A stretch of DNA of 64,000 nt from Planctomycetota bacterium (GTDB lineage: Bacteria > Planctomycetota > MHYJ01 > WSZJ01): NCBI GenBank assembly GCA_038060895.1, contig JBBTCT010000018.1:1-64000 (forward strand). Direction: 5' to 3'. Shown piece by piece: positions 846 to 51,136 of this stretch. Numbering within the stretch: position 1 is the stretch's first letter; each line of letters starts with the position of its first letter. The notes under the pieces are model-generated. The model made no database searches. It saw nothing but the letters and a program-made list of their open reading frames with translations, and was not told the DNA's origin. A program made the translations under genes and the position numbers.

Positions 846-985
846 AAAACGACCGGGGATTGGGAACGGCGGGCCGGGGATGGGGGGGGATTGGGATTGG
901 GATAGGGATGGGGATAGGGAAAGCGCGCATCGCGGGTGGCCCCATCCCAATCCCCATCCCGCATTTCCCAATCCCCTGCCGTTTT
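846..985. repeat. Palindromic element with GGGATN hexamer arms (family G, copy 1)
   Basis: Left arm GGGATT GGGATT GGGATA GGGATG GGGATA; right arm CCCATC CCAATC CCCATC...TTCCCAATCCCCTGCCGTTTT. Confidence 0.85.
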
Positions 986-1043
986 CCCTTCCGTTGTCCC
1001 CCGCCGTTGTCCCTTCTCCACCCCCTGCGTACACTCCCGGGCC

Positions 1044-1964
1044 ATGTTCCTCATCACCGGCGGCGGCGGTTTCATCGGCAATACTGTCGTCAGACGCCTC
1101 GTGGCGTCGGGCGACCCCGTGCGCGTCATCGACAACTTCTCGACCGGGTTCCGACGCAACCTGGACGGGCTGGAAGGCAAAGTCGAGATCGTCGGCGCCG
1201 ACATCTGTGACCCGGAAGCCGTGGCAATGGCGATGCGCGGCGTGAAAGCCGTCGTGCACCTCGCCGCGATCCCGTCCGTCGCCCGCTCCGTCGCAAACCC
1301 CGTCGAAACGTGGCGCGTCAACGTTGACGGGACTCTTCGGTTGCTCGAGGAGGCCCGCAGGACCGGAGTGAAGCGCTTCGTCTTCACCTGCTCGTCGTCC
1401 GTCTACGGCGACGCGCCCACGCTTCCCAAGCACGAGGACATGCCGTCGCGCCCGCTGTCGCCGTACGCGGCCTCCAAGGCGGCGGGGGAGTCTCTCGTTT
1501 CGTCCTACGCCGCCTCCTACGGCCTCTCCGCCTGCTCGCTCCGGCCCTTCAATGTCTATGGCCCCCGCCAGGACCCGAAGTCGGAGTACGCGGCGGCGAT
1601 CCCGCGCTTCATCCTCGCCGCCCTCGAGAATCGCCCCGCGACGGTCTACGGAGACGGCTCGCAGACGCGCGACTTCACGTACGTGGAGGATGCGGCGGAG
1701 GCCTTCGAGCGCGCGGCGAAGTCACAGGCCCAGGGTGTCTTCAACGTCGCTGCGGGCGGCCGCGTGAGCGTGAACGACCTGATCGGCCGCATCCGCGCGA
1801 TCTGCGGGGGCCCAGGCCCGAAGTTCGAGCCGAAGCGGGCAGGGGACGTGCTGCACTCGCAGGCGGACGTGTCCGCCGCCGAGAAGGAACTCGGGTTCAA
1901 GGCAAAGACCGCGCTGGAGGAAGGTCTGAAGCGGACCATCGAGTACTTCAGGGGGCTTCGATGA
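1044..1964 (+). CDS. NAD-dependent epimerase/dehydratase (extended SDR, UDP-glucose 4-epimerase-like)
   Basis: TGGGGFIG Rossmann motif, SSSVYG, YAASK catalytic motif, FNVYGPRQ; start moved to ATG 1044. Confidence 0.93.
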   Translation: MFLITGGGGFIGNTVVRRLVASGDPVRVIDNFSTGFRRNLDGLEGKVEIVGADICDPEAVAMAMRGVKAVVHLAAIPSVARSVANPVETWRVNVDGTLRLLEEARRTGVKRFVFTCSSSVYGDAPTLPKHEDMPSRPLSPYAASKAAGESLVSSYAASYGLSACSLRPFNVYGPRQDPKSEYAAAIPRFILAALENRPATVYGDGSQTRDFTYVEDAAEAFERAAKSQAQGVFNVAAGGRVSVNDLIGRIRAICGGPGPKFEPKRAGDVLHSQADVSAAEKELGFKAKTALEEGLKRTIEYFRGLR

Positions 1965-2176
1965 AAACGGGTCGCAACCTGACGTGGGAAAAGAAATTCG
2001 CGAAGGTCGGCGTGACGATCAAGTACCCGGCGCCGAAGACCCGGCCGCACGAATACGTGCTGAACCACGACTGCGGGAAGACGTGGATCGTGAAGTACCT
2101 CGCGCTGCCCCGCGAGGCGCGCACCGAGTACTGGCGCTGCCCGAACGGCTGTCACAAGGGCGTGACGCTCAAGTAG
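1961..2176 (+). CDS. Small hypothetical protein, possible Zn ribbon (HDCG...CPNGC)
   Basis: ATGA overlap with epimerase stop; native codon usage. Confidence 0.65.
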   Translation: MKTGRNLTWEKKFAKVGVTIKYPAPKTRPHEYVLNHDCGKTWIVKYLALPREARTEYWRCPNGCHKGVTLK

Positions 2177-2192
2177 GCCGTAGAATGGCCGG

Positions 2193-3221
2193 GTGCCGAA
2201 GAAGATCGTCGTCGACATGGCGGACATCCGCACCCAGACCTTCGAGGTCCACCACAAGGCCGTGGAGGACACGCGGCTGGACGTGTACATCCCGAAGCGG
2301 CTGCCCGGGTACTCGCGCACGCTGATCGCGAAGCTGATCAAGGACCAGCTGGTGCTCGTGAACGGAAAGAAGTCGAAAGCGTCGTACCAGATCCAGCAGG
2401 GAGACAAGATCGAGGTCCAGATCCCGCGCCTCATCGAGCCCCAGATGATCGCCGAAGACATCCCGCTGAGCGTCGTCTTCGAGGACGACCAGATCGTCGT
2501 CGTGAACAAGCCGCCGCATTTCGTCGTGCACCCCGCGGCGGGGCACTGGGACGGCACGCTCGCGAACGCCCTCCTCGCCCACGTCGGGCACACCCTGCCG
2601 AAGGCCTCCGACGGCGACATCTACCGCCCCGGCATCGTGCACCGCCTCGACCAGGACACGAGCGGCATCATCTGCTGCGCGAAAACCGCCAACGCGCACA
2701 CGTACCTGTCGCTTCAGTTCCAGGAACGCCTCCTCGAGAAGGAGTACCTCGCGATCGTGGAAGGCGAGCCCAGGCTGGACGGCGACTGGATCGACGCGCC
2801 GATCGGCCGGCACCCGAAGGATCGCGAGAAGATGGCGGTGCGAAAGGACGGAGACGCGAAACCGTCGCAGACGCGCTGGGAAGTCCTCGAGCGTTATCGC
2901 GGATTTTCGCTCGTCAAGTGTTACCCCAAAACGGGCCGCACGCACCAGATCCGCGTCCACCTCGCCTACATCGGCCATCCGATCGTTGCCGACGAAGCCT
3001 ACGGCCGCCGCGAAACCCTCTACGAGTGGCAACTGCGTTACGACACCAAGCCGGCGGACCACCCGATCGAGCAGCCGATCCTGGAGCGCCACGCCCTTCA
3101 CGCGTTCGCACTCCGCATCACGCACCCGAACGGCACGGACATGCGCTTTGAAGCGCCGATGACCGAAGACATGGCGCGAACCAGGGATGCGTTGAGAAAG
3201 TGGCGACCGGCGAACGGATGA
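2193..3221 (+). CDS. rluD: RluA-family (RluD-like) pseudouridine synthase with S4 domain
   Basis: RLDVYI S4 start, VVNKP, HRLDQDTSG catalytic motif, TGRTHQIRVHL, GHPIV, ALHA. Confidence 0.92.
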   Translation: MPKKIVVDMADIRTQTFEVHHKAVEDTRLDVYIPKRLPGYSRTLIAKLIKDQLVLVNGKKSKASYQIQQGDKIEVQIPRLIEPQMIAEDIPLSVVFEDDQIVVVNKPPHFVVHPAAGHWDGTLANALLAHVGHTLPKASDGDIYRPGIVHRLDQDTSGIICCAKTANAHTYLSLQFQERLLEKEYLAIVEGEPRLDGDWIDAPIGRHPKDREKMAVRKDGDAKPSQTRWEVLERYRGFSLVKCYPKTGRTHQIRVHLAYIGHPIVADEAYGRRETLYEWQLRYDTKPADHPIEQPILERHALHAFALRITHPNGTDMRFEAPMTEDMARTRDALRKWRPANG

Positions 3222-3393
3222 GGCTGGCAAGAGGCTGGCAGAGGCTAAAGGCCCTTGGGGCGCTGTGAGCGAGTAAACGCCGGTGGGACTACCGAAGATG
3301 GGGGCCAACCTCCCACCGCAGCACAGCACGCTGTTCCAACTCAGCCTCCGCCAGCGTCTGCCAGCCTTCGCCAGCCTCCGCCCGCCTGCCGTT
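3220..3393. repeat. Palindromic element with ~10-nt unit arms (GAGGCTGGCA / AGCCTCCGCC)
   Basis: Three units at 3220-3246 inverted against four units at 3343-3382, ending CCTGCCGTTT. Confidence 0.75.
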
Positions 3394-3454
3394 TCTCCTC
3401 GCATCGGCACGCCAGAATCGTTACACCACTACCTGCGGACGGTTCCGCCTAACC

Positions 3455-4180
3455 ATGACGCGCATCATCGACCTCAGTGCCGACGCCGGAGAGGGGCCCG
3501 ACGCCGAAGCTGATCTCCCCCTCTTGGAGGTTCTCACCTCCGTGAGCATCGCCTGCGGCACCCATGCCGGCGGACCGGCCACCATCGCGCGGCTGTCGAA
3601 AGCAGCGGCCGCGCGGGGAGTCGGGGTGGGGGCGCATCCCGGGCTGGTCTCCGGGAGGAAGTCCCGCACGATCGAACCCGGTGAAGCGGAAGACGCGCTG
3701 CTGGCCCAGGTCGCAGAGTTCCGCAGACACACCCTCGCGCCTCTTCAGCACGTCAAGCTCCACGGGGCGCTGTACCACGCGGCCCGCGACGCCCGGGTTG
3801 CCGGGGCGGTGATCGACGCGTTCAAGACGCTGGGCGTCCCGATTCTCGTCGCACAGGCCGGTTCGCCGCTGGAGCGGCTGGGGCGGGAAGCGGGAGTAAG
3901 GATCGCCTCGGAGGCGTTCCTGGACCGCGCCTACCAGCCCGACGGGACGCTGGTGCCGCGCGACAGCACGGGCGCGCTCCTCACCGGAGAACGTGCGGTC
4001 GCTTCGCGCGCCGTCCGATTCGCGCTCGAAAATCTCGTGGATGCAGGCGGCGACATCGCGGTCGTGGCGGACACGCTGTGCGTTCATTCGGATACGCCTG
4101 GCGCCGTGGGCCTGGCGCGGGCGGCGCGGGTGGCGCTGGAGCGTGCGGGCGTGGTCGTGCGTCCGATGGGGGCCGCATGA
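3455..4180 (+). CDS. pxpA: 5-oxoprolinase subunit A (LamB/YcsF family)
   Basis: IDLSADAGEG, IACGTHAGGP, GAHPG, HVKLHGALY, EAFLDRAY, TLCVHSD motifs. Confidence 0.88.
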   Translation: MTRIIDLSADAGEGPDAEADLPLLEVLTSVSIACGTHAGGPATIARLSKAAAARGVGVGAHPGLVSGRKSRTIEPGEAEDALLAQVAEFRRHTLAPLQHVKLHGALYHAARDARVAGAVIDAFKTLGVPILVAQAGSPLERLGREAGVRIASEAFLDRAYQPDGTLVPRDSTGALLTGERAVASRAVRFALENLVDAGGDIAVVADTLCVHSDTPGAVGLARAARVALERAGVVVRPMGAA

Positions 4181-5763
4181 AATTCATCGAAGAAGGCGAC
4201 AGCGGACTTCTCGTGCGCTGGACGGCGTCGTCCGACCCGACGGTGGCCTATCGCGCGACCGGGCTGAGGCGGCGGCTGGTGGATTCTGCGCCGAAGTGGC
4301 TGCGCGAAGCGGTGCCGGGGGCGTGTTCTCTCTGCATCGTGTTTGACCCGCTCATGGCGGACTTCGCCGAAGTTCAGGCGGCCGTGGTGGCGCTGGGGGA
4401 TTCCGCCGAAGAGCCTCCGGGCGCGAAGACGGTTGAGGTCCCGGTCGTCTACGGCGGTCCGGATGCGCCGGACATGCAGCGCGTCTGCGAGCACACGAAC
4501 CTGTCGCCGGAGGAAGTGATCCGCCGGCATTCGAGCGGGAAGTACCGGGTGGCGTTCATGGGCTTCTCGCCGGGATTCGCGTACATGGTGGGGCTGCCTC
4601 CCGAGCTCGTGACGCCGCGCCTGCGCTCCCCGCGTGTCCGCGTCCTCCCCGGCTCGGTCGGTTTCGCGGCAAGCCACACCGGCATCTACCCGACGGAAAC
4701 GTCCGGCGGCTGGAACATCATCGGCCGCACTACCGCGCGCATCGTGGACTGGCGCCGCCCGGAGCCGTTCCTCTACCAGCCCGGCGACCGCGTCATCTTC
4801 AAGCCCGTCGAGAAACACTCCTTCGAACTCGCGCAGCAGGAATCCACGACCTTCGAAAGCCCGCACCAGGCCGCCGAAATCCGCCACGCCGGCCTCCTCA
4901 CCACCGTCCAGGACCTCGGCCGCGGCGGCTTCGGGCACCAGGGCGTCCCCATCTCCGGCGCCATGGACCGCGTCGCCATCCGCCTCGCCAACCTCGCCGC
5001 CGGCAACCGCGAAACCGCCGCCGCCCTCGAATACACCTACCCCGCCCCGAAACTTCGCTTCACCAGCAAAGCCTCCTTCGCCCTCGGCGGCGCCGACTTC
5101 GGCGCCCTCCTCGCCGGCCGCCCCGTTCCCATGTACGAGCGCGTGGACGCCAAGCCCGGCGAAGAACTCGTCTTCGACCGCCGCCACCGCGGCCATTGGG
5201 GCTACCTCGCCCTCGCCGGCGGTATTTCGGCGAAGCGCTTCCTGGGAAGCGCCGCGACGGACACCCGCAGCGGCATCGGTCCGAACCTCAGCGCCGGCGC
5301 GCGGCTGACGCTCGAAGGAACGCCCGCACCCAACGGCCGCACCGTGCCGAAGGACCTGGCTCCGATGCCCGGCGAAGAGCCGAAGGTGCGCTTCATGCCG
5401 GGCGAGGAAACGGCCTCCGCGACGCTCGATGGCACGGCAATCATCCTGAGCGTCCTCCAGGACCGCGCCGGCTACCGCAGCGACGCGCCGGAGTTTCAGC
5501 CGGGTGATTCGTCCATGCTCTCGGAGGGCATTCCGCCGGGCACGATTCAGCTCCCCCCCGACGGCAAGCCGATCTTCCTGATGGCCGATCGCCCCACGAC
5601 CGGCGGCTACCAGAAGCTCGCGTTCTTCGCTTCCATCGACACGCGCATCATCGCGCAGTCACCGCCAGGCACGCACCTGAGGTTCCAGAAGGTCACCGCG
5701 GAAGAAGCGCGGCGGGCAGTGCGGGAAATGCGGGCGGCATTGACGGCGATTGAGGGGTTGTAA
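4177..5763 (+). CDS. Fused 5-oxoprolinase subunits B and C (KipI-KipA-like)
   Basis: N-half GFSPGFAYM/GIYP..TSGGWNIIG (PxpB); C-half TTVQDLGR.G, GTIQLPPDG, TTGGY (PxpC); ATGA overlap with pxpA. Confidence 0.88.
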   Translation: MKFIEEGDSGLLVRWTASSDPTVAYRATGLRRRLVDSAPKWLREAVPGACSLCIVFDPLMADFAEVQAAVVALGDSAEEPPGAKTVEVPVVYGGPDAPDMQRVCEHTNLSPEEVIRRHSSGKYRVAFMGFSPGFAYMVGLPPELVTPRLRSPRVRVLPGSVGFAASHTGIYPTETSGGWNIIGRTTARIVDWRRPEPFLYQPGDRVIFKPVEKHSFELAQQESTTFESPHQAAEIRHAGLLTTVQDLGRGGFGHQGVPISGAMDRVAIRLANLAAGNRETAAALEYTYPAPKLRFTSKASFALGGADFGALLAGRPVPMYERVDAKPGEELVFDRRHRGHWGYLALAGGISAKRFLGSAATDTRSGIGPNLSAGARLTLEGTPAPNGRTVPKDLAPMPGEEPKVRFMPGEETASATLDGTAIILSVLQDRAGYRSDAPEFQPGDSSMLSEGIPPGTIQLPPDGKPIFLMADRPTTGGYQKLAFFASIDTRIIAQSPPGTHLRFQKVTAEEARRAVREMRAALTAIEGL

Positions 5764-5933
5764 CGTCCCGGAAGTAGGGTCGGATTGGGGGGATTCTTTC
5801 TCACACTATTTCCAGCCCATTGGGTCGATCAGTTGTATTGAGGAGGACAGTCGATGGGAAAATGTGTTATGTCGCTGGGCAATATCCGTCATTTGAACTT
5901 TGGTTTCATATCTGCCGTTCGAATGGGAGGGCC

Positions 5934-6632
5934 TCACTTCGCTTCCGCACTCACCCACCCCTCCGCCTCCGGATTCACCATGCGGTGATCGGCCGGCCGG
6001 CCCCCCTGGTCGCGCTTCCAGACAATCCCTCGCTGATCGATGTAAAACGTAAGAAACCCGTCCTCTCCGTGCGTGCGGGGGTAAGCCGTGGCGGCGAACT
6101 GCGTGAGGGAGTCCACGCCGACGACGGTGCGGAAGAGATACCCGTCGCGTGGGATGGGCGGGGCGCCGGTGGCCTCGGCGCCGTCGGCACGCGCGACGTC
6201 GATGCCCATGGATTCCGGCCGGCCGTGGCGGGCCAGCTGGAATCGGTAGAGGCCGGCGATGTCCTCGGTCCAGTAGTCCTGCACCCCGTTGCCGTCCAGG
6301 TCGTCCTTCCTCAGGGACTCCTGCTGGGCCGCGATGCGCGCGAGGCCGTCGGGGGCGGAGGCTTCGCCTTGGGCGATGCGATCGCGGTAGAGGCGGCGGA
6401 GAAGCGGTTCGGGGCGGGCGAGGTAGATCGCCGCCGCGATTCCTTCCAGGATGAACCAGAGAATTCCGAGTCCGATCCCGATGCGGGCGAGCCGCGCGCC
6501 GCGTCTGGCGCCTCCGGACTCGCGGATCTCCGCGAGCGCGGCCAGGCCGAGGAGCGAAGGGAAGAGCGGGGCGCCGAGTGCGCCGAAGGCGGCCGCGGCG
6601 ATGGCGAGAGGGGAGATTCGGGGAGAGGGCAC
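5934..6632 (-). CDS. Membrane-anchored protein, DUF4190-like N-terminus plus DUF2950-like domain
   Basis: Two N-terminal hydrophobic helices around 'AEIRESGG..RGARLA', DLDGNGVQDYW, FAATAYP..G..G..TFYI. Confidence 0.6.
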   Translation of the reverse strand: MPSPRISPLAIAAAAFGALGAPLFPSLLGLAALAEIRESGGARRGARLARIGIGLGILWFILEGIAAAIYLARPEPLLRRLYRDRIAQGEASAPDGLARIAAQQESLRKDDLDGNGVQDYWTEDIAGLYRFQLARHGRPESMGIDVARADGAEATGAPPIPRDGYLFRTVVGVDSLTQFAATAYPRTHGEDGFLTFYIDQRGIVWKRDQGGRPADHRMVNPEAEGWVSAEAK

Positions 6633-6686
6633 GGGGGAATGTTACGACGGTTCGAGGGCGGGCATCTGCGCGTGTCTGCGAAATTC

Positions 6687-8021: not shown

Positions 8022-8071
8022 GGGCGGGGATGGTACGCGATGGCATCGCCGTCGGAAGGCGGGAAAAGGAG

Positions 8072-8125
8072 AACTACAATTCTCAAGTTCCAAGCAAACA
8101 AACAACTACAAGACGACAACTCCAA
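8072..8125 (+). repeat. Single 54-nt arm of the CAA-rich palindrome family (family A)
   Basis: AACTACAATTCTCAAGTTCCAAGCAAACAAACAACTACAAGACGACAACTCCAA aligns without gaps to both arms at 10874-11004. Confidence 0.8.
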
Positions 8126-8238
8126 GGACGTTCGAACGGGGGGGAACCGTCCTGTCGTTGGTCGCTTGCTGATCCCGGTGGCGCCGGCACGGAACCCCCT
8201 TTGTGATCGGCGCCGGTTCGCCTATTCTCGGCACTCCA

Positions 8239-10850: not shown

Positions 10851-10852
10851 CG

Positions 10853-11014
10853 GAAAACGGCAACTTCAATTTCAACTTCAAATTTCAAGTTTCAAGCAAA
10901 CGGCGAACTCCAGGAGGACAACTTCAATTCACGGCTTGGAATGGGGGATGTTGAAGTTGGCGTCTTGGAGTTCTCCGTTTGCTTGAAGCTTGTGAGTTGT
11001 AGTTGACTGTTTTC
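10853..11014. repeat. Complete CAA-rich palindromic element (family A)
   Basis: 54-nt arms 10874-10927 and 10951-11004 inverted; termini GAAAACGGCAAC / GTTGACTGTTTTC. Confidence 0.85.
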
Positions 11015-11020
11015 AGTTTC

Positions 11021-11806: not shown

Positions 11807-11813
11807 GGGCGCG

Positions 11814-12125: not shown

Positions 12126-12156
12126 GGCCCTATTCTACCGCCTCCGCCGAAATGAA

Positions 12157-12190
12157 GCGGGGCGGAAGCGATGTGTCGCTTCCGCCCCGT
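12157..12190. terminator. Hairpin terminator downstream of fliA
   Basis: GCGGGGCGGAAGCGA-TGTG-TCGCTTCCGCCCCGT. Confidence 0.75.
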
Positions 12191-12210
12191 TTGTGGTCAT
12201 TTCTCGTGGC

Positions 12211-12987: not shown

Positions 12988-13055
12988 GAGGACAGGCTCC
13001 GTGAGAAGGGTACTTGCGAAGTGATGTTTATATTTTATAACATATAAAAATAAGG

Positions 13056-13316: not shown

Positions 13317-13321
13317 GAGGC

Positions 13322-15419: not shown

Positions 15420-15564
15420 GAACGACCTGAGCCGCAGAGGACGCAGGGAGCGCCGAGAAATGCGATTTCAGCAGCACAGTCAGTTCGCAGCCGGCCCTTC
15501 GCAGACTCGCTCATAAAAAAAGTCGTTCTCTGTGAACTCTGTTTCCTCTGCGGCTAAGTCGTTC
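15420..15564. repeat. Palindromic element with 9-nt CGCAGAG-type arms
   Basis: GAACGACCTGAGCCGCAGAGGACGCAGGGAGCGCCGAG inverted against CTCTGTGAACTCTGTTTCCTCTGCGGCTAAGTCGTTC. Confidence 0.8.
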
Positions 15565-18819: not shown

Positions 18820-18871
18820 GGGCTAGATGCGAGGCTGGGGTTCCTTGCTGGGACGGTGTGGAAACAACGGG

Positions 18872-18989
18872 GTCTAAGGTCGAAGGTCTAAAGTCTAAGG
18901 ATTAAGGGCAAGGCGGACCTGTCTCGCGAACGACCATCTGGCGAAAGGGCGATGATGTGACCTTCGACCTTCGACTTCCGACCTTCGAC
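18872..18989. repeat. Palindromic element with TCKAAGG heptamer arms (family T, copy 1)
   Basis: TCTAAGG TCGAAGG TCTAAAG TCTAAGG, 60-nt spacer, CCTTCGA CCTTCGA CTTCCGA CCTTCGA. Confidence 0.88.
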
Positions 18990-19006
18990 TCTTGGCCGTC
19001 GACCTC

Positions 19007-19786: not shown

Positions 19787-20043
19787 GGCGCCTCGGGACC
19801 GGCCGCCGGAAACGCTTCAAGCGGCGGCGCCCCGCATCCCAGCCGCTCGAGAATCGGCCGCCGCCGGAAGTCCCAGACCGACAGCTCGAGATCCCAGCTG
19901 AGCTGCCAGTCGCGCGGTCCCGTGGACAATTCCTTGCGCCAGCCGCGCTGCGCGGCCATCTGCCGCGCGCCCTCGCCCGTGATCAGCGCGAGGTAGCGGA
20001 TGTAGGCGAACTCGGAATCCCAGTCGCGCTTCGGTGCATTCAT
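19783..20043 (-). CDS. Orphan 86-aa protein translationally coupled between fliQ and fliR
   Basis: ATG overlaps fliQ TGA; its TGA overlaps fliR ATG; fills the gap exactly. Confidence 0.6.
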   Translation of the reverse strand: MNAPKRDWDSEFAYIRYLALITGEGARQMAAQRGWRKELSTGPRDWQLSWDLELSVWDFRRRPILERLGCGAPPLEAFPAAGPEAP

Positions 20044-20318
20044 CGGAACATCCCCGGCATGCGAGTGAAGAGGTTGACCGTGTACTCGGTCATGCGCGTC
20101 ATGAGCCACGGGAGGAGAACGAAGAGGGCGAGTGCGGTGGCGACGATCTTGGGAACGAACGCGAGCGTCTGTTCCTGGACCTGCGTGGCGGCCTGGAGGA
20201 CCGAGACGGTGAGGCCGACCACGAGGCCGACGACGAGAAGCGGCAACGAGATCACCAGTGCGAGAAGGATCATCTCGCGGCCGAGGTCGATGGCTTGCTG
20301 GTACTGGTCGGGATTCAT
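20040..20318 (-). CDS. fliQ: Flagellar biosynthetic protein FliQ
   Basis: LQAATQVQEQTLAFVPKI, PWLM. Confidence 0.95.
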   Translation of the reverse strand: MNPDQYQQAIDLGREMILLALVISLPLLVVGLVVGLTVSVLQAATQVQEQTLAFVPKIVATALALFVLLPWLMTRMTEYTVNLFTRMPGMFR

Positions 20319-20325
20319 GGGAGGG

Positions 20326-20479
20326 AAACGGCAGGGGATGGGGAACAACGGGCCTGGGATGGAGGGGGCTTGGGATCGGGATGGGGATAGGGCGAACGGA
20401 GAACAGTCGTTGCCCGATCCCCATCCCAATCCCAATCCCCCCCGATCCCGAACCCGCCCTTCCCCTGCCCCTGCCGTTC
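20326..20479. repeat. GGGATN-arm palindromic element (family G, copy 2) between fliP and fliQ
   Basis: AAACGGCAGGGGATGGGGAA...GGGATCGGGATGGGGATAGGG / CCCGATCCCCATCCCAATCCCAATCCC...CCTGCCGTTC. Confidence 0.85.
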
Positions 20480-20489
20480 TGCCTTTCGC

Positions 20490-21242
20490 CTAATAGAAAC
20501 TCTTCACGAGCGACCCGACCGTGAGATGCCATCCATCCACCAGGATGAACAGCAGGATCTTGAACGGGAGACTGATGAGCACCGGCGGCAGCACGAGCAT
20601 CCCCATCGAAATCAGCGTCGTGCTCACCACGAGATCGATCACCAGGAACGGCAGAAAAATCGCGAACCCCATGATGAACGCCCGCCGGAGCTCGCTGATC
20701 ACGAACGCCGGAACGAGGATCTCCGTCGGGATGTCCTGGTTTTTCACCTGCTGCGGCACGGGCGTTTTCGTGATGTCCAGGAAGAGCTTCACGTCCTTGC
20801 GCCGCGTCTGCGCGAACATGAACTTGCGCATCGGCTCGAGGGCTTCGTGAAGCGCCTGCTTCTGCGTGATCTTGCTGTCGAGGTACGGCGTGATCGCGTT
20901 CGCCTTGATCTCGCGAATGGTTGGCCCCATCACCATGAACGTCAGGATCAGCGACAGCCCGATGATGATGTTGTTGGGCGGCAGGTCCTGCGTCCCCAGG
21001 CTGCGCCGCACGAACGACAACACGATCACGATCCGCGTGAACGCCGTCGTCAGCACCAGGATCGAAGGCGCCAGCGCCATCACGGTCAGCATCACGAGGA
21101 TCTCAAGCGTCGTGACGACCTTCTCGGGATCCTCGGAGCGGTCGAAATGATGGAACGTCGGCACGATTCCCTGCGCTTCCGCCGGGGAAGCGGCCGCCGC
21201 GAAGAATGCGAGCACGCACAGGGGGAGCAGCAGGCGCTTCAT
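20490..21242 (-). CDS. fliP: Flagellar biosynthetic protein FliP
   Basis: TAFTRIVIVL, PAFVISEL..AF.MGF, PPVLISLPFKILLFILVDGW. Confidence 0.96.
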   Translation of the reverse strand: MKRLLLPLCVLAFFAAAASPAEAQGIVPTFHHFDRSEDPEKVVTTLEILVMLTVMALAPSILVLTTAFTRIVIVLSFVRRSLGTQDLPPNNIIIGLSLILTFMVMGPTIREIKANAITPYLDSKITQKQALHEALEPMRKFMFAQTRRKDVKLFLDITKTPVPQQVKNQDIPTEILVPAFVISELRRAFIMGFAIFLPFLVIDLVVSTTLISMGMLVLPPVLISLPFKILLFILVDGWHLTVGSLVKSFY

Positions 21243-21968: not shown

Positions 21969-22138
21969 CTAAGTAGCTCCACGTTGATTCTGTGCCATGC
22001 AGCCGCCGCGAATTTCGCCGGCCCGCAAGGCGGAGACCGGAACTGGAGCGGAACGGAGCTCCAGTGAGGATCGACAACGAAGCGGGACGGCGAAAGGCGC
22101 GCGGATGCATGGCACAGAATCAACGTGGAGCTACTTAG
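21969..22138. repeat. 170-bp REPIN/MITE-like element with 33-bp perfect terminal inverted repeats
   Basis: CTAAGTAGCTCCACGTTGATTCTGTGCCATGCA (21969-22001) perfectly inverted at 22106-22138; GTAG near ends; internal ACTGGAGC/GCTCCAGT stem. Confidence 0.88.
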
Positions 22139-23077: not shown

Positions 23078-23107
23078 AGATCGGCTGGCGGTAGGGGTGA
23101 ACTGAAG
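23078..23107 (-). promoter_or_regulatory. Sigma28-like promoter upstream of fliN
   Basis: CTTCAG-N16-GCCGATCT. Confidence 0.5.
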
Positions 23108-23124
23108 CCCGGTGGGGGGGAGAG

Positions 23125-23210
23125 GGTAGTTGGCAGGGGGTAGCGGGTAGTGACAGCCGCACTGAGATGGGTTCTTCCTACCCCCTACCCAAGTACCCCC
23201 TACCAACTGC
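23125..23210. repeat. Palindromic element with GGTAGNN heptamer arms (family Y, copy 1)
   Basis: GGTAGTT GGCAGGG GGTAGCG GGTAG inverted against CTACCCC CTACCCA AGTACCC CCTACCA ACTGC. Confidence 0.8.
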
Positions 23211-25248: not shown

Positions 25249-25311
25249 AGTTTTGAGTGTTGAGTGTTGAGTGTTGAGTAGGGAGCAGGCAGTAGTAGGT
25301 AGGTGGTAGGA
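25249..25311 (+). repeat. Nine in-register heptamers grading from AGTGTTG to GGTAGGN, no inverted partner
   Basis: AGTTTTG AGTGTTG AGTGTTG AGTGTTG AGTAGGG AGCAGGC AGTAGTA GGTAGGT GGTAGGA. Confidence 0.8.
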
Positions 25312-25317
25312 ACGACT

Positions 25318-29835: not shown

Positions 29836-29989
29836 AAAAACGTCAGGGGATGGGGAGGGGCGGGATTGGGATGGGGGGATCGGGATTTGGGTCGGGATGG
29901 GGCTGGCAACTTTTCTTGACGGCCCCATCCCCATCCCGATCCCGATCCCCTCCCATCCCCATCCCGTCCTTCCCAATCCCATGCCGTTC
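29836..29989. repeat. GGGATN-arm palindromic element (family G, copy 3) upstream of fliK
   Basis: AAAAACGTCAGGGGATGGGGA...GGGATTGGGATG / CCCCATCCCCATCCCGATCCCGATCCC...TTCCCAATCCCATGCCGTTC. Confidence 0.85.
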
Positions 29990-35749: not shown

Positions 35750-35836
35750 GGGTCTAAGGTCGAAGGTCGAAAGTCGAAGGGAACTGCCTCGAATTACGCT
35801 GATTTCCTTCGACCTTCGACCTTTGACATTCGACCC
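35750..35836. repeat. TCKAAGG heptamer palindrome (family T, copy 2) between fliE and fliF
   Basis: TCTAAGG TCGAAGG TCGAAAG TCGAAGG, 25-nt spacer, CCTTCGA CCTTCGA CCTTTGA CATTCGA. Confidence 0.88.
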
Positions 35837-42655: not shown

Positions 42656-42658
42656 TCT

Positions 42659-45426: not shown

Positions 45427-45429
45427 GGC

Positions 45430-45765
45430 TCAGGCCTTCGGCGCGTAATAGTCGGGGAATTTCTTGGCCATGATCTCCTTGATCTCGAGGAGCTGGTGGT
45501 GCAGCTTGAGCAGCTTGATCCACTCGATGATCTTGAAGACGGGTTCGTCATAGAGCCGGTGGCCGGACTTGGTCGCCTCGGCGGCGTGGATGAGGCCGAG
45601 CATCGTGTAGTTGTGAACGGTCTGGCGTGTGAGTCCGGTGTACTGCATGACTTCGCCGATCTTGAAAAGTTTGCGTGGGCCTGAAGTCGGAGGGGCCGTG
45701 GCCGGCGCGGGCGCCGGTTCGGGGTCCTTGGCGGTGCGAGTTGTGCGGCGGGTGGAACCGGCCAT
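45430..45765 (-). CDS. MerR-family HTH transcriptional regulator (DNA-binding domain only)
   Basis: FKIGEVMQYTGLTRQTVHNYTMLGLI...GHRLYD, LLEIKE. Confidence 0.88.
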   Translation of the reverse strand: MAGSTRRTTRTAKDPEPAPAPATAPPTSGPRKLFKIGEVMQYTGLTRQTVHNYTMLGLIHAAEATKSGHRLYDEPVFKIIEWIKLLKLHHQLLEIKEIMAKKFPDYYAPKA

Positions 45766-45838
45766 GGCGGGAACGACCTCCGGGGAAGGGGACTCGACGG
45801 AAATGGTACGGCATGAAAGAGGGGGGCGGGCAGGCGGA

Positions 45839-45874
45839 TTTACATTATGTCAGTCATAAAATGTAAAGTGTAAA
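45839..45874 (-). promoter_or_regulatory. MerR-type promoter with 19-bp spacer and overlapping dyad
   Basis: TTTACA-N19-CATAAT; dyad TTTACATT-N13-AATGTAAA. Confidence 0.65.
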
Positions 45875-45886
45875 TTAGTATCGGCA

Positions 45887-46030
45887 GACCGCGCACGAAA
45901 CCTTCGGCCTTCGACGCGCGACGCTGGCCCGTCCGGCGCGCTCAAGGAGCGGAATCTTGTGCCGGGGCTTACCGTGCGCGCCGGACGAGCCATCGCCGCA
46001 CGCCTCCGGCCGAAGGTTTCGCGCGCGGTC
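45887..46030. repeat. 144-bp long hairpin (MITE-like)
   Basis: GACCGCGCACGAAACCTTCGGCC inverted at 46008-46030 (22/23); inner CGTCCGGCGCGC/GCGCGCCGGACG stem. Confidence 0.8.
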
Positions 46031-46055
46031 CGGGTCCTTGATCGATGGCCGCCGC

Positions 46056-47981
46056 CTAGACCCTTACTTCCAGATCGTCTCCTGAAGCCAGCTCCACCCC
46101 GCTCAGCGCCGGCTCCACTTCCTCGAGCAGGAACAGATCCACCTGCTCCGGGGCGCGCCCGACGTACCGCTTTGCATCCAGCAACTCCGCGCCCTTCCCC
46201 TTGAGCACGGCGAACGCCGGGTCCGCCGCGAGCCGCTCGAACAAGTCGTTCGGCTTGCCTTCTTCGCGGACTTTCGCGAAGGCCGCCACTGAGGCCTCGC
46301 GGATTTTCTCGTGAAGCTGCTGCCGGTCGCCGCCCGCCTTGACCGCCGCCATCAGGAGGTCCTCCGTCGCGAGGAACGGAAGCTCCTGTCGCAGATAGTT
46401 GTCGATCACCTTCGGGTAGACGACCAGCCCCTCGGCCACGCTGATCACGAGATTGAGAATCGCATCAGCGCCGAGGAACGCCTCCGGCACGCTCAGCCGC
46501 TTGTTCGCCGAATCGTCGAGCGTCCGCTCAAACCACTGCGCCGCCGCCGTGAGCGGCATGTTCGCTTCCAGCGAAATCACAAACCGCGCCAGCCCCGCGA
46601 TCCGCTCGCTCTTCGCGGGGTTCTGCTTGTACGCCATCGCGCTGGACCCGACCTGCCCTTTCCCGAACGGCTCCTGAAGCTCGCCGCGCGACTGCGCCAG
46701 ACGCACGTCGTTTGAAAATTTCGCCGCACTCTGCGCGATCCCGGACAGCGCCGCCATCACCTGCGCGTCCACCTTGCGCGTGTACGTCTGCCCTGTGACC
46801 CGGAACGCGCTCTTGAACCCCATCTTCTTGGTCAGCCGCCGATCCAGGTCCTCCACTTTCTCCTTGTCCCCTTCGAACAGCGCCAGGAACGACGCCTGCG
46901 TCCCAATCGCTCCCTTCACGCCCAGGAACCGAAGCGAGTCCCTCCGCGCGATCAGCTCCTTGAGGTCGATGAGCAGGTCCTGCAGCCACAGGCAAGCGCG
47001 CCGCCCCACCGTCGTCACCTGCGCGGGCTGAAAGTGCGTGAAACCGAGGCAGGGAGTGTTCTTCCACTTCGCCGCAAAGTCCGCGAGCGCCCGGCATGCC
47101 CTCGCCACCTTCGGAATCAGCAGCCCCAGCGCTTCCCGCATCACGATCAGGTCCGTGTTGTCCACCACGAACATGCTCGTCGCGCCCAGGTGGATGATCC
47201 CCGCCGCGCCCGGCGCCTGCTCGCCGTAATGGCGGATGTGCGCCATCACGTCGTGCCGCGTCTCGCGTTCGATCTCCGAAGCCCGGCTCGCGTCCACACG
47301 GTCGCGCGCCGACTTCAGCTCGCCGATCTGCGTCTCCGTGATCGGCAGTCCCAGCTCCTTCTCCGCCTCCGCCAGCGCAATCCAAAGGTCGCGCCACGTC
47401 GTAAACCGCTTCCTGTCCCCGAAGAGCTCGATCATCCTCCGCCCCGCATACCGCTGAGTCAGCGGGTTCACCCAGTCCGTCGCCGTCCCTCCCGGGGTGA
47501 CGTTGCGCGGCACCGCGGGAAGGGGAGTGAGCGGCCGCGATGACGACGGCCGCACCCCACGACGTACTTCGGCCTTGTCGTAATCCTGCGGCCCGTTTGC
47601 AGGCGCCACGGGCGGCGGCCGGTCCTTCCTGCGGAACGAACGCGTCGCTTCGTCCCGGCTCTTGTACCGCTTCAGGAAATCGTTCAGCCCCAGCGTGTCG
47701 AACTGCGCCTGGACCCGCGTCCCAACCTGCACCAGCGCGACCGACCCGCCCGCCGTTTCGTTCTCGTCCGTAAACGTCACGAGCATCGCAATCCCTACGC
47801 TCGCCACGAAATCCACCGCTTCCATGTCGATCACGAAATCCCGCATCCCGCCGCGCCTCAGGTTTTCCAGCGCTTCCTGCAGAAGCGGAGTCCCCGACTG
47901 GTCGATTTTCCCGCGGAGCACGATGAGCCGCGCGTTCGAGTCCTCCGGGAGCCTCGAGACGGCGATATCGAGCTCGCTCAC
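46056..47981 (-). CDS. purB: Adenylosuccinate lyase with N-terminal STAS (anti-sigma antagonist) domain
   Basis: aa 1-115 STAS (LRGKID, DMEAVDFVASVG, FDTLGL); linker; NPLTQRYA, RHDVMAH, HLGATS, GFTHFQPAQ, GSSAMAYKQNP. Confidence 0.9.
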   Translation of the reverse strand: MSELDIAVSRLPEDSNARLIVLRGKIDQSGTPLLQEALENLRRGGMRDFVIDMEAVDFVASVGIAMLVTFTDENETAGGSVALVQVGTRVQAQFDTLGLNDFLKRYKSRDEATRSFRRKDRPPPVAPANGPQDYDKAEVRRGVRPSSSRPLTPLPAVPRNVTPGGTATDWVNPLTQRYAGRRMIELFGDRKRFTTWRDLWIALAEAEKELGLPITETQIGELKSARDRVDASRASEIERETRHDVMAHIRHYGEQAPGAAGIIHLGATSMFVVDNTDLIVMREALGLLIPKVARACRALADFAAKWKNTPCLGFTHFQPAQVTTVGRRACLWLQDLLIDLKELIARRDSLRFLGVKGAIGTQASFLALFEGDKEKVEDLDRRLTKKMGFKSAFRVTGQTYTRKVDAQVMAALSGIAQSAAKFSNDVRLAQSRGELQEPFGKGQVGSSAMAYKQNPAKSERIAGLARFVISLEANMPLTAAAQWFERTLDDSANKRLSVPEAFLGADAILNLVISVAEGLVVYPKVIDNYLRQELPFLATEDLLMAAVKAGGDRQQLHEKIREASVAAFAKVREEGKPNDLFERLAADPAFAVLKGKGAELLDAKRYVGRAPEQVDLFLLEEVEPALSGVELASGDDLEVRV

Positions 47982-48397
47982 TGGATCGTCGCCTTCTGCG
48001 CCGGCAGCCAGAGCGCAATCGCGACGTAGACCCCGAGGACAAGCAGGAGCAGAGTCGAAACGAGCCAGACGCGGGTCAGGCGCCGCGGCATCACGAGTTC
48101 GGCGAGGACGAACGCGCCGAGAGGCAGGAAGAGCAGCGCGCCCAGCTGCGCTACGGCGCCGAAGAGCGGCTTCGAAAATGCCGGAATCACGCTTCCGCCG
48201 ATTTCAAGGCGCGACGCCAGCGCATTGACGTGATAGACGCTCCAGCCCGCAAGCGTTCCGTAGAGAAGAAGGGTCAGCCCGAGGTACGAATAGTGAACCG
48301 CCGGTTCCGCGCGATCGTTCCCGGTCTGCGGCGTCGCCCCCGGCAGCCCCGCCGGAGTCGGATTCGCCTGTCCCGCCGGCATTGTCTCGTCAGTCAC
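47978..48397 (-). CDS. Hypothetical membrane protein (about 3 TM)
   Basis: Hydrophobic segments; stop overlaps the STAS-purB start. Confidence 0.6.
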   Translation of the reverse strand: MTDETMPAGQANPTPAGLPGATPQTGNDRAEPAVHYSYLGLTLLLYGTLAGWSVYHVNALASRLEIGGSVIPAFSKPLFGAVAQLGALLFLPLGAFVLAELVMPRRLTRVWLVSTLLLLVLGVYVAIALWLPAQKATIQ

Positions 48398-48668
48398 GCG
48401 GCCTCCCCGCTCCTGCTTCCTCGAGCATCCGGGCAAAACGCGCGGGTTCCATCCGGAACTTGCACGCCAGCTGACCGTCGATGAAGGCCTGCGGCACCGA
48501 CTCCGCGTACTCCGCCGCCAGCGCCGCATCTTCCAGCACGTTGACCACCTCGACCTCGAACCCGTACCACATCAGGAACGCCTCGGCCGCCCCCTTCATC
48601 TCGTCACAAAGAGGGCAGCCGGGTCGTGAGAGGATCTTGACGCGGACGTCAGTGCTTGGGGAACTCAA
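48390..48668 (-). CDS. Glutaredoxin-like protein (DUF836-type)
   Basis: SRPGCPLCDE, EY...VPQAFIDG; probable TTG start. Confidence 0.8.
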   Translation of the reverse strand: MSSPSTDVRVKILSRPGCPLCDEMKGAAEAFLMWYGFEVEVVNVLEDAALAAEYAESVPQAFIDGQLACKFRMEPARFARMLEEAGAGRPRD

Positions 48669-49512
48669 ACTTCGCCTCGTTCTCCTTCCACCACGCCTTC
48701 CACTTGTCCGCCACCGCCCAGCGGTCTTCCTTCCCCGCATACATCTTGTAACCCATGTCGAACCCCGTTCCCCACTTCAGCCCCTCGATCGCCATCATCC
48801 GGATCTCGGGAACCTCGCTGTACAGGAAGTCGATCAGTGACTTCACGCCGTCGCGACACTCCGCTCTCGTCAGCGCATCGGCCAGCATCACCCTCCATGC
48901 TTCCGTGCCTTCGTTGGAGTGCTTGAGAAGCGCCTGCCGGGTCGCGTCGTGCGGATCCCACGCGGACATGATCTTCAGCAACTCGCCGCGAACGCTTCCG
49001 TCGCTGAGATACGGCTCCAGGATGGGTGCGGCCTCCGCCGGCTTCGATTTCGTGAGAACCAGGATCGCGTTCGGCCGGGAGGGTGACTGAAGCTTGCGGA
49101 CGAGGAGGACGAGGTAGGGAAGCAGCTTGTCCGAAGGAAGGGCCAGTCCTTCCTCGATGGCCTTTTCGGGCTTCAGCTCATGAAGCGCCTTGAGGTACGC
49201 GTCGATATTGGCGCGGACCACGGGGTCCATCGGGGTGCCGGCGAGCGCGCTTTCGAGATCATCTCCGCTCAGCGGACGAGAGGGGGGCGAGAGCGCGTCC
49301 ACCTTCCGCTGCAGCACGGTCATAAGCTGGTTGAGGGCGCGGACATCCCGTTCGAGTTCCGCGACGTGCTTGATCATCTCGCGCACGGTGTTGTCGGAAG
49401 CGGCCTGCCGCTCCGCGACGTTGTCCAACCCCACGGAAACCTTTTCGACGTCGCCGGGCGTCGCACAACCCGCTGCGGCAACGGCAAAGAGCAAGGCAGA
49501 GAACTTCTTCAC
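48649..49512 (-). CDS. Lipoprotein with coiled coil and HEAT-like repeats
   Basis: Lipobox AAGC after KKF signal; coiled coil; C-terminal 'LKWGTGFDMGY...AVADKWKAWW'. Confidence 0.75.
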   Translation of the reverse strand: MKKFSALLFAVAAAGCATPGDVEKVSVGLDNVAERQAASDNTVREMIKHVAELERDVRALNQLMTVLQRKVDALSPPSRPLSGDDLESALAGTPMDPVVRANIDAYLKALHELKPEKAIEEGLALPSDKLLPYLVLLVRKLQSPSRPNAILVLTKSKPAEAAPILEPYLSDGSVRGELLKIMSAWDPHDATRQALLKHSNEGTEAWRVMLADALTRAECRDGVKSLIDFLYSEVPEIRMMAIEGLKWGTGFDMGYKMYAGKEDRWAVADKWKAWWKENEAKFEFPKH

Positions 49513-49624
49513 GGGCGATCCTCCAAGTCGCGGCGTTGGCCGCGTGTGTCCCCCCGGGGACGAAGGGCTGAGCGTCGGGCGAAGGGGGGATTGTAGTGAT
49601 CTGCCGCTCGTTCGGCCAGAGCGA

Positions 49625-49746
49625 CTCATAGCGTGAGAAACAATCCGGTGGGTCAGGCTGCGTCGGCCCAGTGGTGGTTGTTTGCAGGGCTCTTCTTTTT
49701 CGGGCCGACTCCGCCCGACCCACCGGATTGTTTCTCACGCTATGAG
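49625..49746. repeat. 122-bp MITE-like element with 30-bp perfect TIRs
   Basis: CTCATAGCGTGAGAAACAATCCGGTGGGTC perfectly inverted at 49717-49746. Confidence 0.88.
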
Positions 49747-49819
49747 GGAAAACGACTCTTCTGAACGAAGTGTCTGAACATTCCTCATCGCGGGCCCGAT
49801 TTCAGCACGCAGTTTTCCC

Positions 49820-49940
49820 AGCGCGCGTGAACCTTGCGAGCGACGGCGAGCGGTCGGGGCTCGCGGCACGGCGTCGAGCCTTTCCGACGCCGGGCCGCGA
49901 GGTCCGACCGCCGACGGCGTTCGCAAGGTTCACGCGCGCT
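49820..49940. repeat. 121-bp long hairpin abutting the purM stop
   Basis: AGCGCGCGTGAACCTTGCGA perfectly inverted at 49921-49940; imperfect pairing continues to the centre. Confidence 0.85.
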
Positions 49941-51004
49941 CACCACTTGATCGCGACTTCGCGCTTGCCCCGCTTGACGGTGCCTACGATGGCGGCGGTC
50001 TCGCCGGATTCCTGCAGCCGGCGGACGACGGCCTTCGCGTAGTACGGATCGACGATCATGACCAGTCCCAGGCCCATGTTGAAGACGCGGACCATTTCGT
50101 CGTCCGGGATGCCGCCCTTCTCCTGCAGGAAGCTGAAAATGCGCGGGACGGGGATTTCGCCGATCTTGATTTCGACGTCCACGTCCGGAGGAATCACGCG
50201 CGGGACATTTTCCACGATCCCGCCGCCCGTGATGTGAGCGATTGCTTTCACCACCTTCTTTGTCCGGTAGGGCGCAAGCACGTGTTTCATGGACCGGACG
50301 TAAATCCGGGTCGGCGTCAGCAGTTCCTCGCCGAGCGTGCCGCGGAGCCCTTCGATCCGGTCCTCGAGCTTCAACCCCGCTTTTTCGAGAAGGACCTTGC
50401 GCACGAGGGTGAAGCCGTTCGAGTGAAGCCCGCTCGACCCGACGCCGATCACCGCGTCGCCGACGCAGACCGATTTCCCGTCGATGATCCGGTCGCGTTC
50501 CACGATTCCCGTGCAGAATCCGCCCATCTCGTATTCGCCTGTCCCATAGTCGTCAGGGTGCTGCGCCGTCTCGCCGCCGAGCAGAACACAGTCCGACAAT
50601 TCGCAGCCGCGAACCAGGCCCTTCACCACGTCCAGCATCAGCGCCTCGTCCATTGGCCCGACGGCAATGTAGTCGAGGAAGAACAGCGGCTCGGCACCGG
50701 AGACGATGAGGTCGTTCACGCTCATGGCGACCAGGTCGATCCCGACCGTGTCGTGCTTCCCGGTGGCCTGCGCGATCTTCAGTTTCGTTCCGACTCCGTC
50801 CGCGCAACCGACCAGGACGGGGTCCTTGTATTGCTTCTTGAAGAGGTTCGCGGGGCCGTTCAGGGCGAAGAAGCCGGCGTACCCCCAGTCGTTCTGGATG
50901 ACGCGCGGGTTGTAAGTGCGGCGCATGAGGCCGAAGAGTTTGTCGATGAAGCGGTCTTTGGCGACCGTATCGACGCCGGCGTCCTTGTAGGTCATGCGCG
51001 CCAT
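49940..51004 (-). CDS. purM: Phosphoribosylformylglycinamidine cyclo-ligase
   Basis: TYKDAGVD, DGVGTKL, GIDLVAMSVND, GGETA, SSGLHSNGF, AHITGGG, FNMGLG. Confidence 0.96.
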   Translation of the reverse strand: MARMTYKDAGVDTVAKDRFIDKLFGLMRRTYNPRVIQNDWGYAGFFALNGPANLFKKQYKDPVLVGCADGVGTKLKIAQATGKHDTVGIDLVAMSVNDLIVSGAEPLFFLDYIAVGPMDEALMLDVVKGLVRGCELSDCVLLGGETAQHPDDYGTGEYEMGGFCTGIVERDRIIDGKSVCVGDAVIGVGSSGLHSNGFTLVRKVLLEKAGLKLEDRIEGLRGTLGEELLTPTRIYVRSMKHVLAPYRTKKVVKAIAHITGGGIVENVPRVIPPDVDVEIKIGEIPVPRIFSFLQEKGGIPDDEMVRVFNMGLGLVMIVDPYYAKAVVRRLQESGETAAIVGTVKRGKREVAIKW

Positions 51005-51055
51005 GGATCGTGGGCTCCTGTTGATTGCGGGCGCGGGATGCTAACCGAGGGAGGA

Positions 51056-51136
51056 GGTAGTTGGTAGGAGGTAGGGGGTAGTAAAGACGCGCGTGCCCAA
51101 AGTGCCGTAACTACCCCCTACCCACTACCCCCTGCC
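51056..51136. repeat. GGTAGNN heptamer palindrome (family Y, copy 2) between purF and purM
   Basis: GGTAGTT GGTAGGA GGTAGGG GGTAG inverted against CTACCCC CTACCCA CTACCCC CTGCC. Confidence 0.85.

Follow-up and report, generated by a model that had tools for sequence, protein, structure and literature searches.

The intergenic palindromes of short tandem units that punctuate a 64,000-nt stretch of DNA (hereafter the window, positions 1-64000 of contig C18) from an uncultured Planctomycetota metagenome-assembled genome (MAG), designated G000, are in our view gene-less and probably non-autonomous copies of very small hairpin-bounded mobile cassettes akin to rRNA intervening sequences (IVSs), a reading that we hold with reasonable, by no means full, confidence. 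In the window, the palindromes are members of dispersed families, and cassettes with a PF05635 or a GxxExxY gene are bounded by arm families of the same kind. Arm type is associated with the gene in many phyla, and sister species differ by the gain, loss or replacement of hairpin elements. A full-length cassette measures ~430-1150 bp and comprises a left arm, an AT-rich sigma-70-like promoter, a single gene of 100-145 codons and a right arm. The gene encodes either a four-helix-bundle protein (PF05635, TIGR02436; '23S rRNA intervening-sequence protein', Avd-like) or a GxxExxY nuclease of the PD-(D/E)XK type (PF13366, TIGR04256). The G000 assembly is a draft of 5.42 Mb in 47 contigs, with 66% G+C and 86.5% completeness. 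Its genes were called crudely, from the G+C bias at third codon positions (GC3), and the figures on genomic context depend on these calls. The other genomes compared, numbered G002 onwards, are relatives and not independent samples.

No open reading frame (ORF) is enclosed by any of the 12 window sites, and the gene-carrying elements lie elsewhere in G000. Its gene set contains six PF05635 (TIGR02436) and four PF13366 (TIGR04256) genes, and eight of these ten small genes (6/6 and 2/4, respectively) are found between inverted arms, with spans of 436-1148 bp. The first-pass annotation of the window, made from the sequence alone, had suggested that similar arms flank four-helix-bundle and GxxExxY genes in other bacteria, and for G000 this proved true. 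None of 247 random small genes passes the same flanking-arm test, and an unbiased scan of 1963 genes returned ten matches, five of which are PF05635/PF13366 genes. Each of the eight cassettes has its own, different arm set. Seven of these sets recur as empty hairpins (GGTCGAA, GGGAT, CAACTTCAA, AAACGAAAA, GTTCCGG, GAATATC, and CACAGAG), several of them inside the window, and in these seven arm families terminal inverted repeats are common to the empty and the gene-carrying elements, as in MITEs (miniature inverted-repeat transposable elements). For the eighth arm set, TATCCGCG, BLAST found dispersed arm copies elsewhere. The GGGAT cassette has AAAACGGCAG ends and the CAACTTCAA cassette GGAAACGGCA ends. 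On inspection of the sequences, an AT-rich sigma-70-like promoter stretch, conspicuous in 66% G+C DNA, precedes each cassette gene. The six PF05635 proteins are mutually only 19-29% identical and are therefore not recent duplicates.

One window hairpin retains a trace of such a cassette. In the loop of the hairpin at 18872, 19 of 20 nt are retained from the 3' interior of a PF05635 cassette, that of the GGTCGAA family at C2:94589; none of 200 shuffles scores as high, and the genome has no third site of this kind. Like IVS cassettes, the elements of G000 have a terminal inverted-repeat stem (around 8/10 genes) and, in six full-length copies outside the window, a PF05635/TIGR02436 ORF in the loop. 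All cassettes and hairpins sit between protein-coding genes, and none was found in helix 9, 25 or 45 of 23S rRNA; the 23S gene of G000 (C33:1044-4036; 2993 nt against 2925 in the model) contains no large insert, array or long inverted repeat. An RNase III gene is present in the genome.

When complementary arrays were paired throughout G000, 167 pairs resulted; 138 of them do not overlap and have a loop of at most 160 nt. The count is a minimum, since the hairpins at 10853, 20326, and 23125 in the window itself escape the pipeline. At least 15 unit families occur genome-wide. Arm order is constant within every family (for instance, in 19/19, 17/17, 15/15, and 13/13 copies). As a palindrome reads alike on both strands, this fixed order reflects an intrinsic polarity and not gene orientation. 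A rule by which the first arm is always G-rich was ruled out, the CCAACTCC, CCTTAAC, GTGCCTG, and GCCCTT families beginning with a C-rich arm. The copies of a family keep the same order of imperfect unit variants, with 91-100% identity, which fits copying from a putative master element and not local slippage. At C7:207332-207842, a GTTCCGG hairpin sits between unpaired arms of another family, an arrangement that reads as a nested insertion. According to the gene calls, 84 hairpins lie in tandem, 31 in convergent, and 17 in divergent spacers, and arrays start at a median of 26.5 nt past the stop codon. The shared AACGGC-like termini noticed in the first-pass annotation are enriched, with AACGGC at 35 of the 276 hairpin ends and in 1.8% of intergenic windows of 38 nt chosen at random, but they are limited to certain families: AACGNC ends are common in the GGGAT (10/14) and AAACGAAAA (13/26) families, and rare or absent in GTTCCGG (0/38), GGTAG (2/34), and GCGGGC (1/30).

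The association of arms and genes extends far beyond G000. A search with the best single PF05635 protein of G000 against one genome per species gave 80 loci, at 45-65% identity, in Acidobacteriota, Cyanobacteria, Chloroflexi, Nitrospirota, Bacteroidota, Firmicutes, Patescibacteria, and two archaea. Of 76 loci that could be evaluated, 47 pass a strict test for inverted arms, and in 43 of these 47 the arms are periodic, nearly all with a period of 7. The figure of about four to five units per arm is taken from the arm lengths at these multi-phylum PF05635 loci only, the counts by Tandem Repeats Finder across all loci being dominated by weak and coding arrays and not usable. Among relatives of the same class, inverted arms flank 24 of 29 PF05635 loci, 21 of them periodic. 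PF13366 genes are present in 57 of 121 sampled Planctomycetota genomes, with strict arms at 19 of 29 evaluable loci. At least two CRCRRAK units (CACAGAG, CGCAAAG, CACGGAG, CACGAAG) were found in an arm at 25/29 GxxExxY loci versus 0/76 PF05635 loci; each gene family therefore has an arm type of its own. Moreover, the heptamer diverges together with its protein. For 49 heptamer cassettes, protein identity falls from 72% at a heptamer distance of 0 to 64% at 1, 57% at 2, 54% at 3, and 53% at 4-5 (Spearman -0.21, reached in 0/2000 permutations), and all eight protein pairs of the relatives that are at least 60% identical have the same or a related heptamer when the listed arms are compared by eye. 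Hairpin density was sampled in five stretches per genome (~50-100 kb) in eight other genomes and in G000, the contigs of the rich genomes being picked among those with known matches. Three hairpins were found in ~499 kb of the PF05635-rich set (G000, G003, G018, G027, G033) and none in ~346 kb of four match-free genomes; as the 100-kb sample of G000 itself contained none, this comparison is without power. Anecdotally, the syntenic flagellar region is without hairpins in G007 (one weak PF05635 match), G008 (none), and G015 (two weak matches).

These associations bear on an explanation that reverses the direction of events. The hairpins, either host-selected or selfish, might be primary, and the PF05635 and GxxExxY genes passengers homing into their loops, in the same way as into those of 23S rRNA helices; the empty copies would then never have carried a gene. 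The nested arrangement on C7 indicates that the interior of a hairpin can accept an insertion, IVSs replace the tetraloops of rRNA helices (PMC4990558), the cassette remnant was seen in a single loop, and there are at least 138 empty copies to 8 cassettes. Genes dropping into arbitrary hairpins are expected to produce neither a tie between arm and gene nor their co-divergence. We observe both, the tie being strict (25/29 versus 0/76), and the eight cassettes of G000 each have a different arm set. We consider a passenger origin of the genes unlikely.

Comparison of orthologous junctions in related genomes, whose FliP proteins are 95-89% (G002, G003, G004), 80% (G006), and 79% (G007) identical to that of G000, reveals turnover. 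The fliR-flhB junction measures 189 nt, hairpin included, in G000 and is hairpin-free in G002 (4 nt, a TGATG overlap), G004 (14 nt), and G007 (12 nt). Between the response-regulator gene and surE, the 170 nt of G000 are all hairpin, whereas G002 and G004 have gaps of 13 and 33 nt, respectively, and no hairpin there. The fliP-fliQ junction has one orthologous GGGAT hairpin in four species (G000, G002, G003, G004), with conserved ends and a diverged interior; in G003, the contig ends within it. The junction is 182 nt long in G000 versus 18 nt, without a hairpin, in G007. That the palindromes interrupt normally tight junctions, as the first-pass annotation had stated, is thus borne out. Other junctions hold different families in different species. 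Three unit families occupy fliE-fliF in three species (GGTCGAA in G000; GAGTTGAG/CAATACT and GTTGCGA in G002 and G003), and despite this change the flanks, i.e., the stop codon and the ...CGGAGCAGCC-ATG ahead of the start, are conserved. Four different hairpins are found between the gene of a 203-aa protein (ORF203) and fliK in G000, G002, G003, and G006. At flbD-motA, the same arrangement of two unpaired arms of two families is present in G000 and G002.

The retention of hairpins of unlike sequence at fliE-fliF and ORF203-fliK in three to four species can also be read as selection for the structure. The hairpins might be immobile RNA structures maintained by the host (stabilisers of mRNA 3' ends, processing sites or terminators) that arise in place by microsatellite slippage and template switching between arms. 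Their proximity to stop codons and their lower number in divergent spacers (17) than in convergent (31) or tandem (84) ones agree with such a function. An origin in place accounts poorly for dispersed copies that share the order of non-mirrored unit variants at 91-100% identity, for an arm order fixed in all families, and for the same arms bounding horizontally spread genes in many phyla. The short GC-rich stem and U-tract of an intrinsic terminator are not what we see either, the stems being 30-65 bp long with no T-run after them at the window sites and the compared junctions. Furthermore, G007 operates the same operon with junctions of 12-18 nt. Host-selected RNA structures of local origin appear improbable.

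Similar arrays have been read as binding sites of a global regulator in Geobacter metallireducens and as G-quadruplex (G4)-forming repeats in Xanthomonas, and a regulatory role of either kind might be proposed here. Paired tandem-repeat sites are annotated as 'putative global regulator binding sites' in the former (PMC2700814), G4 formation was demonstrated for the GGGAATC repeats of the latter (PMC4692102), and the GGGAT family of G000 contains runs of three G. Most families are, however, without G-tracts (GGTCGAA, CAACTTCAA, GAATATC, AAACGAAAA), at least 15 unrelated units would require equally many regulators, and sister species differ in their sites at the same operon junctions, which makes this proposal very improbable.

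Mobilisation as repetitive extragenic palindromic (REP)/REPIN-type elements by a RAYT (Y1 tyrosine transposase) is hardly credible: multi-copy intergenic palindromes at gene 3' ends and a small gene flanked by its own repeats do recall the RAYT-REPIN layout, but the 86.5%-complete G000 has no match to the Y1 transposase family (PF01797, RAYT), the 30-65-bp stems of tandem units are unlike REPs of 20-40 nt, and the flanked genes belong to PF05635 and PF13366.

Under the cassette explanation that we favor, we infer that the elements are mobile. It would be the cassette protein, perhaps itself a reader of the tandem units, that copies or maintains the empty hairpins in trans. Once transcribed, the 30-65-bp stems would be cut by RNase III, as rRNA IVSs are, and an insertion within an operon would therefore punctuate the mRNA, not destroy it. 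Several points weigh against this explanation. To our knowledge, no recombinase or transposase activity has been described for PF05635 or GxxExxY proteins. We recognised no target-site duplication at filled versus empty junctions or at family boundaries, and no transposition intermediate or excision event at the compared junctions. The presence of different families at one junction in sister species is equally compatible with selection for a hairpin there. The cassette remnant was detected in one of the seven GGTCGAA-family loops checked, several large families (GGTAG, 17 copies; GCGGGC, 15 copies) have no gene-carrying copy in the 86.5%-complete assembly, and other small genes are also found between arms (C9:85000 and C36:102550). 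Within the cassette-system reading of the first-pass annotation, the part that sees the palindromes as scars or empty forms of small-gene cassettes is supported by the arm families that they share with genes; with a remnant in one of seven loops, they may be either landing sites for exchange, as that annotation also proposed, or deletion derivatives. Its alternative of RNA-processing hairpins would draw on the analogy with RNase III excision of 23S rRNA IVSs. On the three points by which that annotation had proposed to judge its reading, gene-enclosing copies exist, orthologous junctions vary and the termini are enriched.

Three further small genes lie between periodic arms in G000. They encode an FtsL-like membrane/coiled-coil ORF (C9:84947-85379), a 134-aa membrane protein (C36:102550-102954), and a 165-aa coiled-coil protein (C6:1188-1983). 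Either the cargo is wider than two families, or unpaired arms fall on both sides of these genes by chance.

A bolder proposal, which we offer only tentatively, is that the tandem units constitute an address read by a protein. The small oligomeric protein of each cassette, be it the Avd-like bundle or the GxxExxY nuclease, would recognise its own array of ~4-5 units and thereby copy, protect or process more than 100 gene-less hairpins in trans. The elements would then form a very widespread bacterial and archaeal class, with autonomous and non-autonomous members and no known transposase, that includes the 23S IVSs, the GGGAATC repeats of Xanthomonas and the 'regulator sites' of Geobacter. PF05635 has been likened to Avd (PMC10053308), and solved PF05635 homologues exist (2GSC and 2RLD, five chains listed each). 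For the GxxExxY protein, no solved structural relative was found by sequence.

The window itself is centered on a flagellar gene cluster on the minus strand, ordered according to Pfam matches as flgB-flgC-fliE, fliFGHIJ, fliK-flgD-flgE-flbD, motAB-fliL, fliN...fliOP, fliQR, flhBA, and flhFG-fliA, and the majority of the sites separate blocks of flagellar genes. Tandem Repeats Finder detected short-period arrays at all named sites except 8072 and 15420, and the sequence of every site was also inspected directly. The intergenic sites with short tandem-unit arms, most of them inverted, and the at least six unit types described in the first-pass annotation are confirmed. Eleven sites were folded and compared with 200 dinucleotide shuffles each; eight are clearly structured, their z-scores lying between -2.4 and -10.4 and at most 2 of 200 shuffles being as stable. 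The window hairpins have energies of -47 to -121 kcal/mol.

Three hairpins belong to the GGGATN family. The first (846..985; -76.4 kcal/mol; z -3.6, 0/200), between an unannotated ORF and an epimerase gene, has an outer stem AAAACG.../...CTGCCGTTTT. The second, between fliP and fliQ (20326..20478; -121.2 kcal/mol; folded from 20330, z -10.4, 0/200), has AAACGGCAG/CTGCCGTT ends and is the one with orthologs in G002, G003, and G004. One contig from an RNA library covers this hairpin (20300-20547), with only 27 nt of flank on one side, and may stem from DNA carry-over. The third (29839..29988; -103.8 kcal/mol; z -7.1, 0/200) lies between ORF203 and fliK. The GGTCGAA family is represented between fliE and fliF (35750..35836; -47.8 kcal/mol; folded from 35745, z -6.4, 0/200) and, with GGTCKAA units, between fliR and flhB (18871..19005; folded from 18865, z -2.4, 2/200), where the loop contains the cassette-interior remnant. 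A GGTAGNN hairpin separates purF from purM (51047..51138; -51.5 kcal/mol; folded from 51040, z -3.7, 0/200). Inverted arms of this family also lie between fliL and fliN (23107..23205), a junction occupied by the same family in G002; they are complementary, yet the energy is like that of the shuffles (folded from 23095, z -0.9, 41/200).

Among the remaining sites, a CAACTTCAA-family hairpin (10853..11012; -73.5 kcal/mol; folded from 10857, z -9.7, 0/200) with GGAAAACGGCAAC at its left end fills the entire convergent spacer between the response-regulator gene and surE, and is spanned unchanged by DNA contigs from an independent study (run X3). A GAGGCTGGCA-family hairpin with 10-nt units (3220..3387) and CTGCCGTTTC at its right end lies between rluD-like and lamB/ycsF-like genes, a junction of 67 nt in G006; being too long for the shuffle test, it was assessed by plain folding energy (-89.0 kcal/mol on the plus strand and -95.6 kcal/mol on the minus strand). 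A degenerate CAA-rich arm with an imperfect partner (8072..8165), in the divergent spacer between an aminotransferase and a histidine-kinase gene, has BLAST relatives elsewhere in the genome; we rate it the weakest hairpin that still folds (from 8060, z -3.0, 1/200). The imperfect hairpin between flhA and flhF (15420..15530) is the only window site of the GxxExxY arm type. Its CRCAGAG-unit arms are complementary, yet its energy is like that of the shuffles (folded from 15415, z -1.2, 27/200). Finally, two unpaired arms of different families lie side by side between flbD and motA (25249..25312), AGTGTTG x4.4 followed by a GGTAG-like array, and do not form a hairpin (folded from 25240, z +1.6).

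Several observations concern the neighborhood of these elements. Contigs from other organisms in the same groundwater/aquifer samples match only the repeat units at 25249-25279 and 10873-10904 and then diverge; within the community, these units are therefore present in further genomic contexts. MAG contigs often end inside periodic-arm hairpins or cassettes (G003:C70 position 1; in G000, C8:1-131, C41:1-139, C12:77-299, and the ends of C30 and C47), and these elements are therefore one cause of assembly breaks. The window also contains five non-periodic, near-perfect long palindromes (21969-22138, 45887-46030, 49625-49746, 49820-49940, and 54064-54180) with arms of 36-55 nt and energies of -88 to -133 kcal/mol. 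Three of them are dispersed, the 21969 type in ~8 copies (83-99% identity), the 49625 type in more than 20, and the 49820 type in ~13, and they constitute a second class of foldback repeats in G000. Among the flagellar genes, an ORF of ~84 codons on the minus strand (19787-20039) lies between fliQ and fliR and overlaps both by ATGA junctions. G002, G004, and G006 share this ORF, whereas G007, with a fliQ-fliR gap of 18 nt, lacks it; it may be an unannotated lineage-specific accessory gene of the flagellar export gate. The gap between flhB and flhA is 34 nt in the window, ~4.2 kb in G002, 2.3 kb in G004, 2.2 kb in G006, and 0.85 kb in G007; the insert in G002 and G004 matches histidine-kinase queries from the window.

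If the cassette explanation is correct, gene families annotated in thousands of genomes merely as 'four helix bundle protein' or 'GxxExxY protein' gain a testable role. Elements situated within operons and variable between sister species would be relevant for operon expression. They also affect genome annotation, as crude ORF calls extend into the arms, and the contiguity of MAGs, as they break assemblies. Should the cassette proteins read the units, this would represent a new sequence-specific recognition of nucleic acids by an Avd-like protein, with a bearing on diversity-generating retroelements.

REP/REPIN-RAYT systems and the Correia elements of Neisseria, which are hairpin MITEs cleaved by RNase III, are abundant intergenic palindromes at gene 3' ends. 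The elements described here resemble them in the protein gene flanked by its own repeat family and in transcribed hairpins that would affect mRNA. They differ by the lack of a Y1 transposase, by arms made of 6-10-nt tandem units, by the absence of a visible target-site duplication, and by the associated proteins, a four-helix bundle in one family and a small PD-(D/E)XK nuclease in the other.

Two published repeat systems are closer in architecture. Xanthomonas campestris and X. axonopodis have 70-75 inverted GGGAATC pairs per genome, described as G4 DNA (Rehm et al. 2015 PMC4692102). As here, these are intergenic arrays of ~4 heptamers, of which convergent pairs can form stem-loops, and whether an array is single or paired is conserved from one species to the other, whereas lengths vary. 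Unlike here, they comprise one unit family, and the authors generally saw no association with mobile elements (PMC4692102). Repeat #15 of their supplementary table lies at the start codon of XCC0516 (PMC4692102). XCC0516 is the PF05635 protein of the PDB entry 2GSC and matches a cassette protein of G000 with E = 5e-23, a link that is not drawn in the available part of that article (Rehm et al. 2015 PMC4692102). The paired 'putative global regulator binding sites' of Geobacter metallireducens, divided into classes 1-4 (Aklujkar et al. 2009 PMC2700814), are likewise multi-copy and intergenic, with 3-5 tandem repeats of 7-9 nt and mostly opposite-strand pairs. The reverse complement of their class 2 unit, TCTCCGTS (PMC2700814), is the CRCGGAGA-type unit by which GxxExxY cassettes are marked here. 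As far as their published description goes, these sites were interpreted as regulator sites without a link to PF05635 or GxxExxY genes (PMC2700814). Full-text searches, which do not extend to subscription journals, found no publication linking such repeats to either gene family. The present analysis adds the match within one genome of cassettes to their own repeat families, arm types specific to a gene family, the co-divergence of protein and heptamer, and turnover followed junction by junction.

The closest counterpart is the 23S IVS, whose origin was called unclear by Warrier et al. (2016 PMC4990558). Its features in Coxiella burnetii are a terminal stem of 28 bp, an S23p ORF, and three tandem GACAGAT heptamers, variable in number, and RNase III excises it (Warrier et al. 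2016 PMC4990558). The IVSs of Coxiella burnetii and Leptospira share with the cassettes of G000 the small size, the terminal inverted-repeat stem, the PF05635 four-helix-bundle ORF in the loop, and the tandem heptamers beside the ORF (GACAGAT x3 there). ORF-less versions occur as well, and mobility was suspected, according to the available part of that paper, and never demonstrated (PMC4990558). RNase III excision is a demonstrated feature of rRNA IVSs (PMC4990558), and we propose it for the present hairpins by analogy. Unlike the IVSs, the cassettes and more than 100 gene-less copies described here lie between protein-coding genes and not in rRNA, both arms are whole tandem arrays, and a second, unrelated gene family (GxxExxY) has the same design. 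If our explanation holds, it would unite three oddities that have so far stood unexplained and unconnected: the 23S IVS with its S23p ORF, the GGGAATC pairs of Xanthomonas, and the paired 'regulator sites' of Geobacter.

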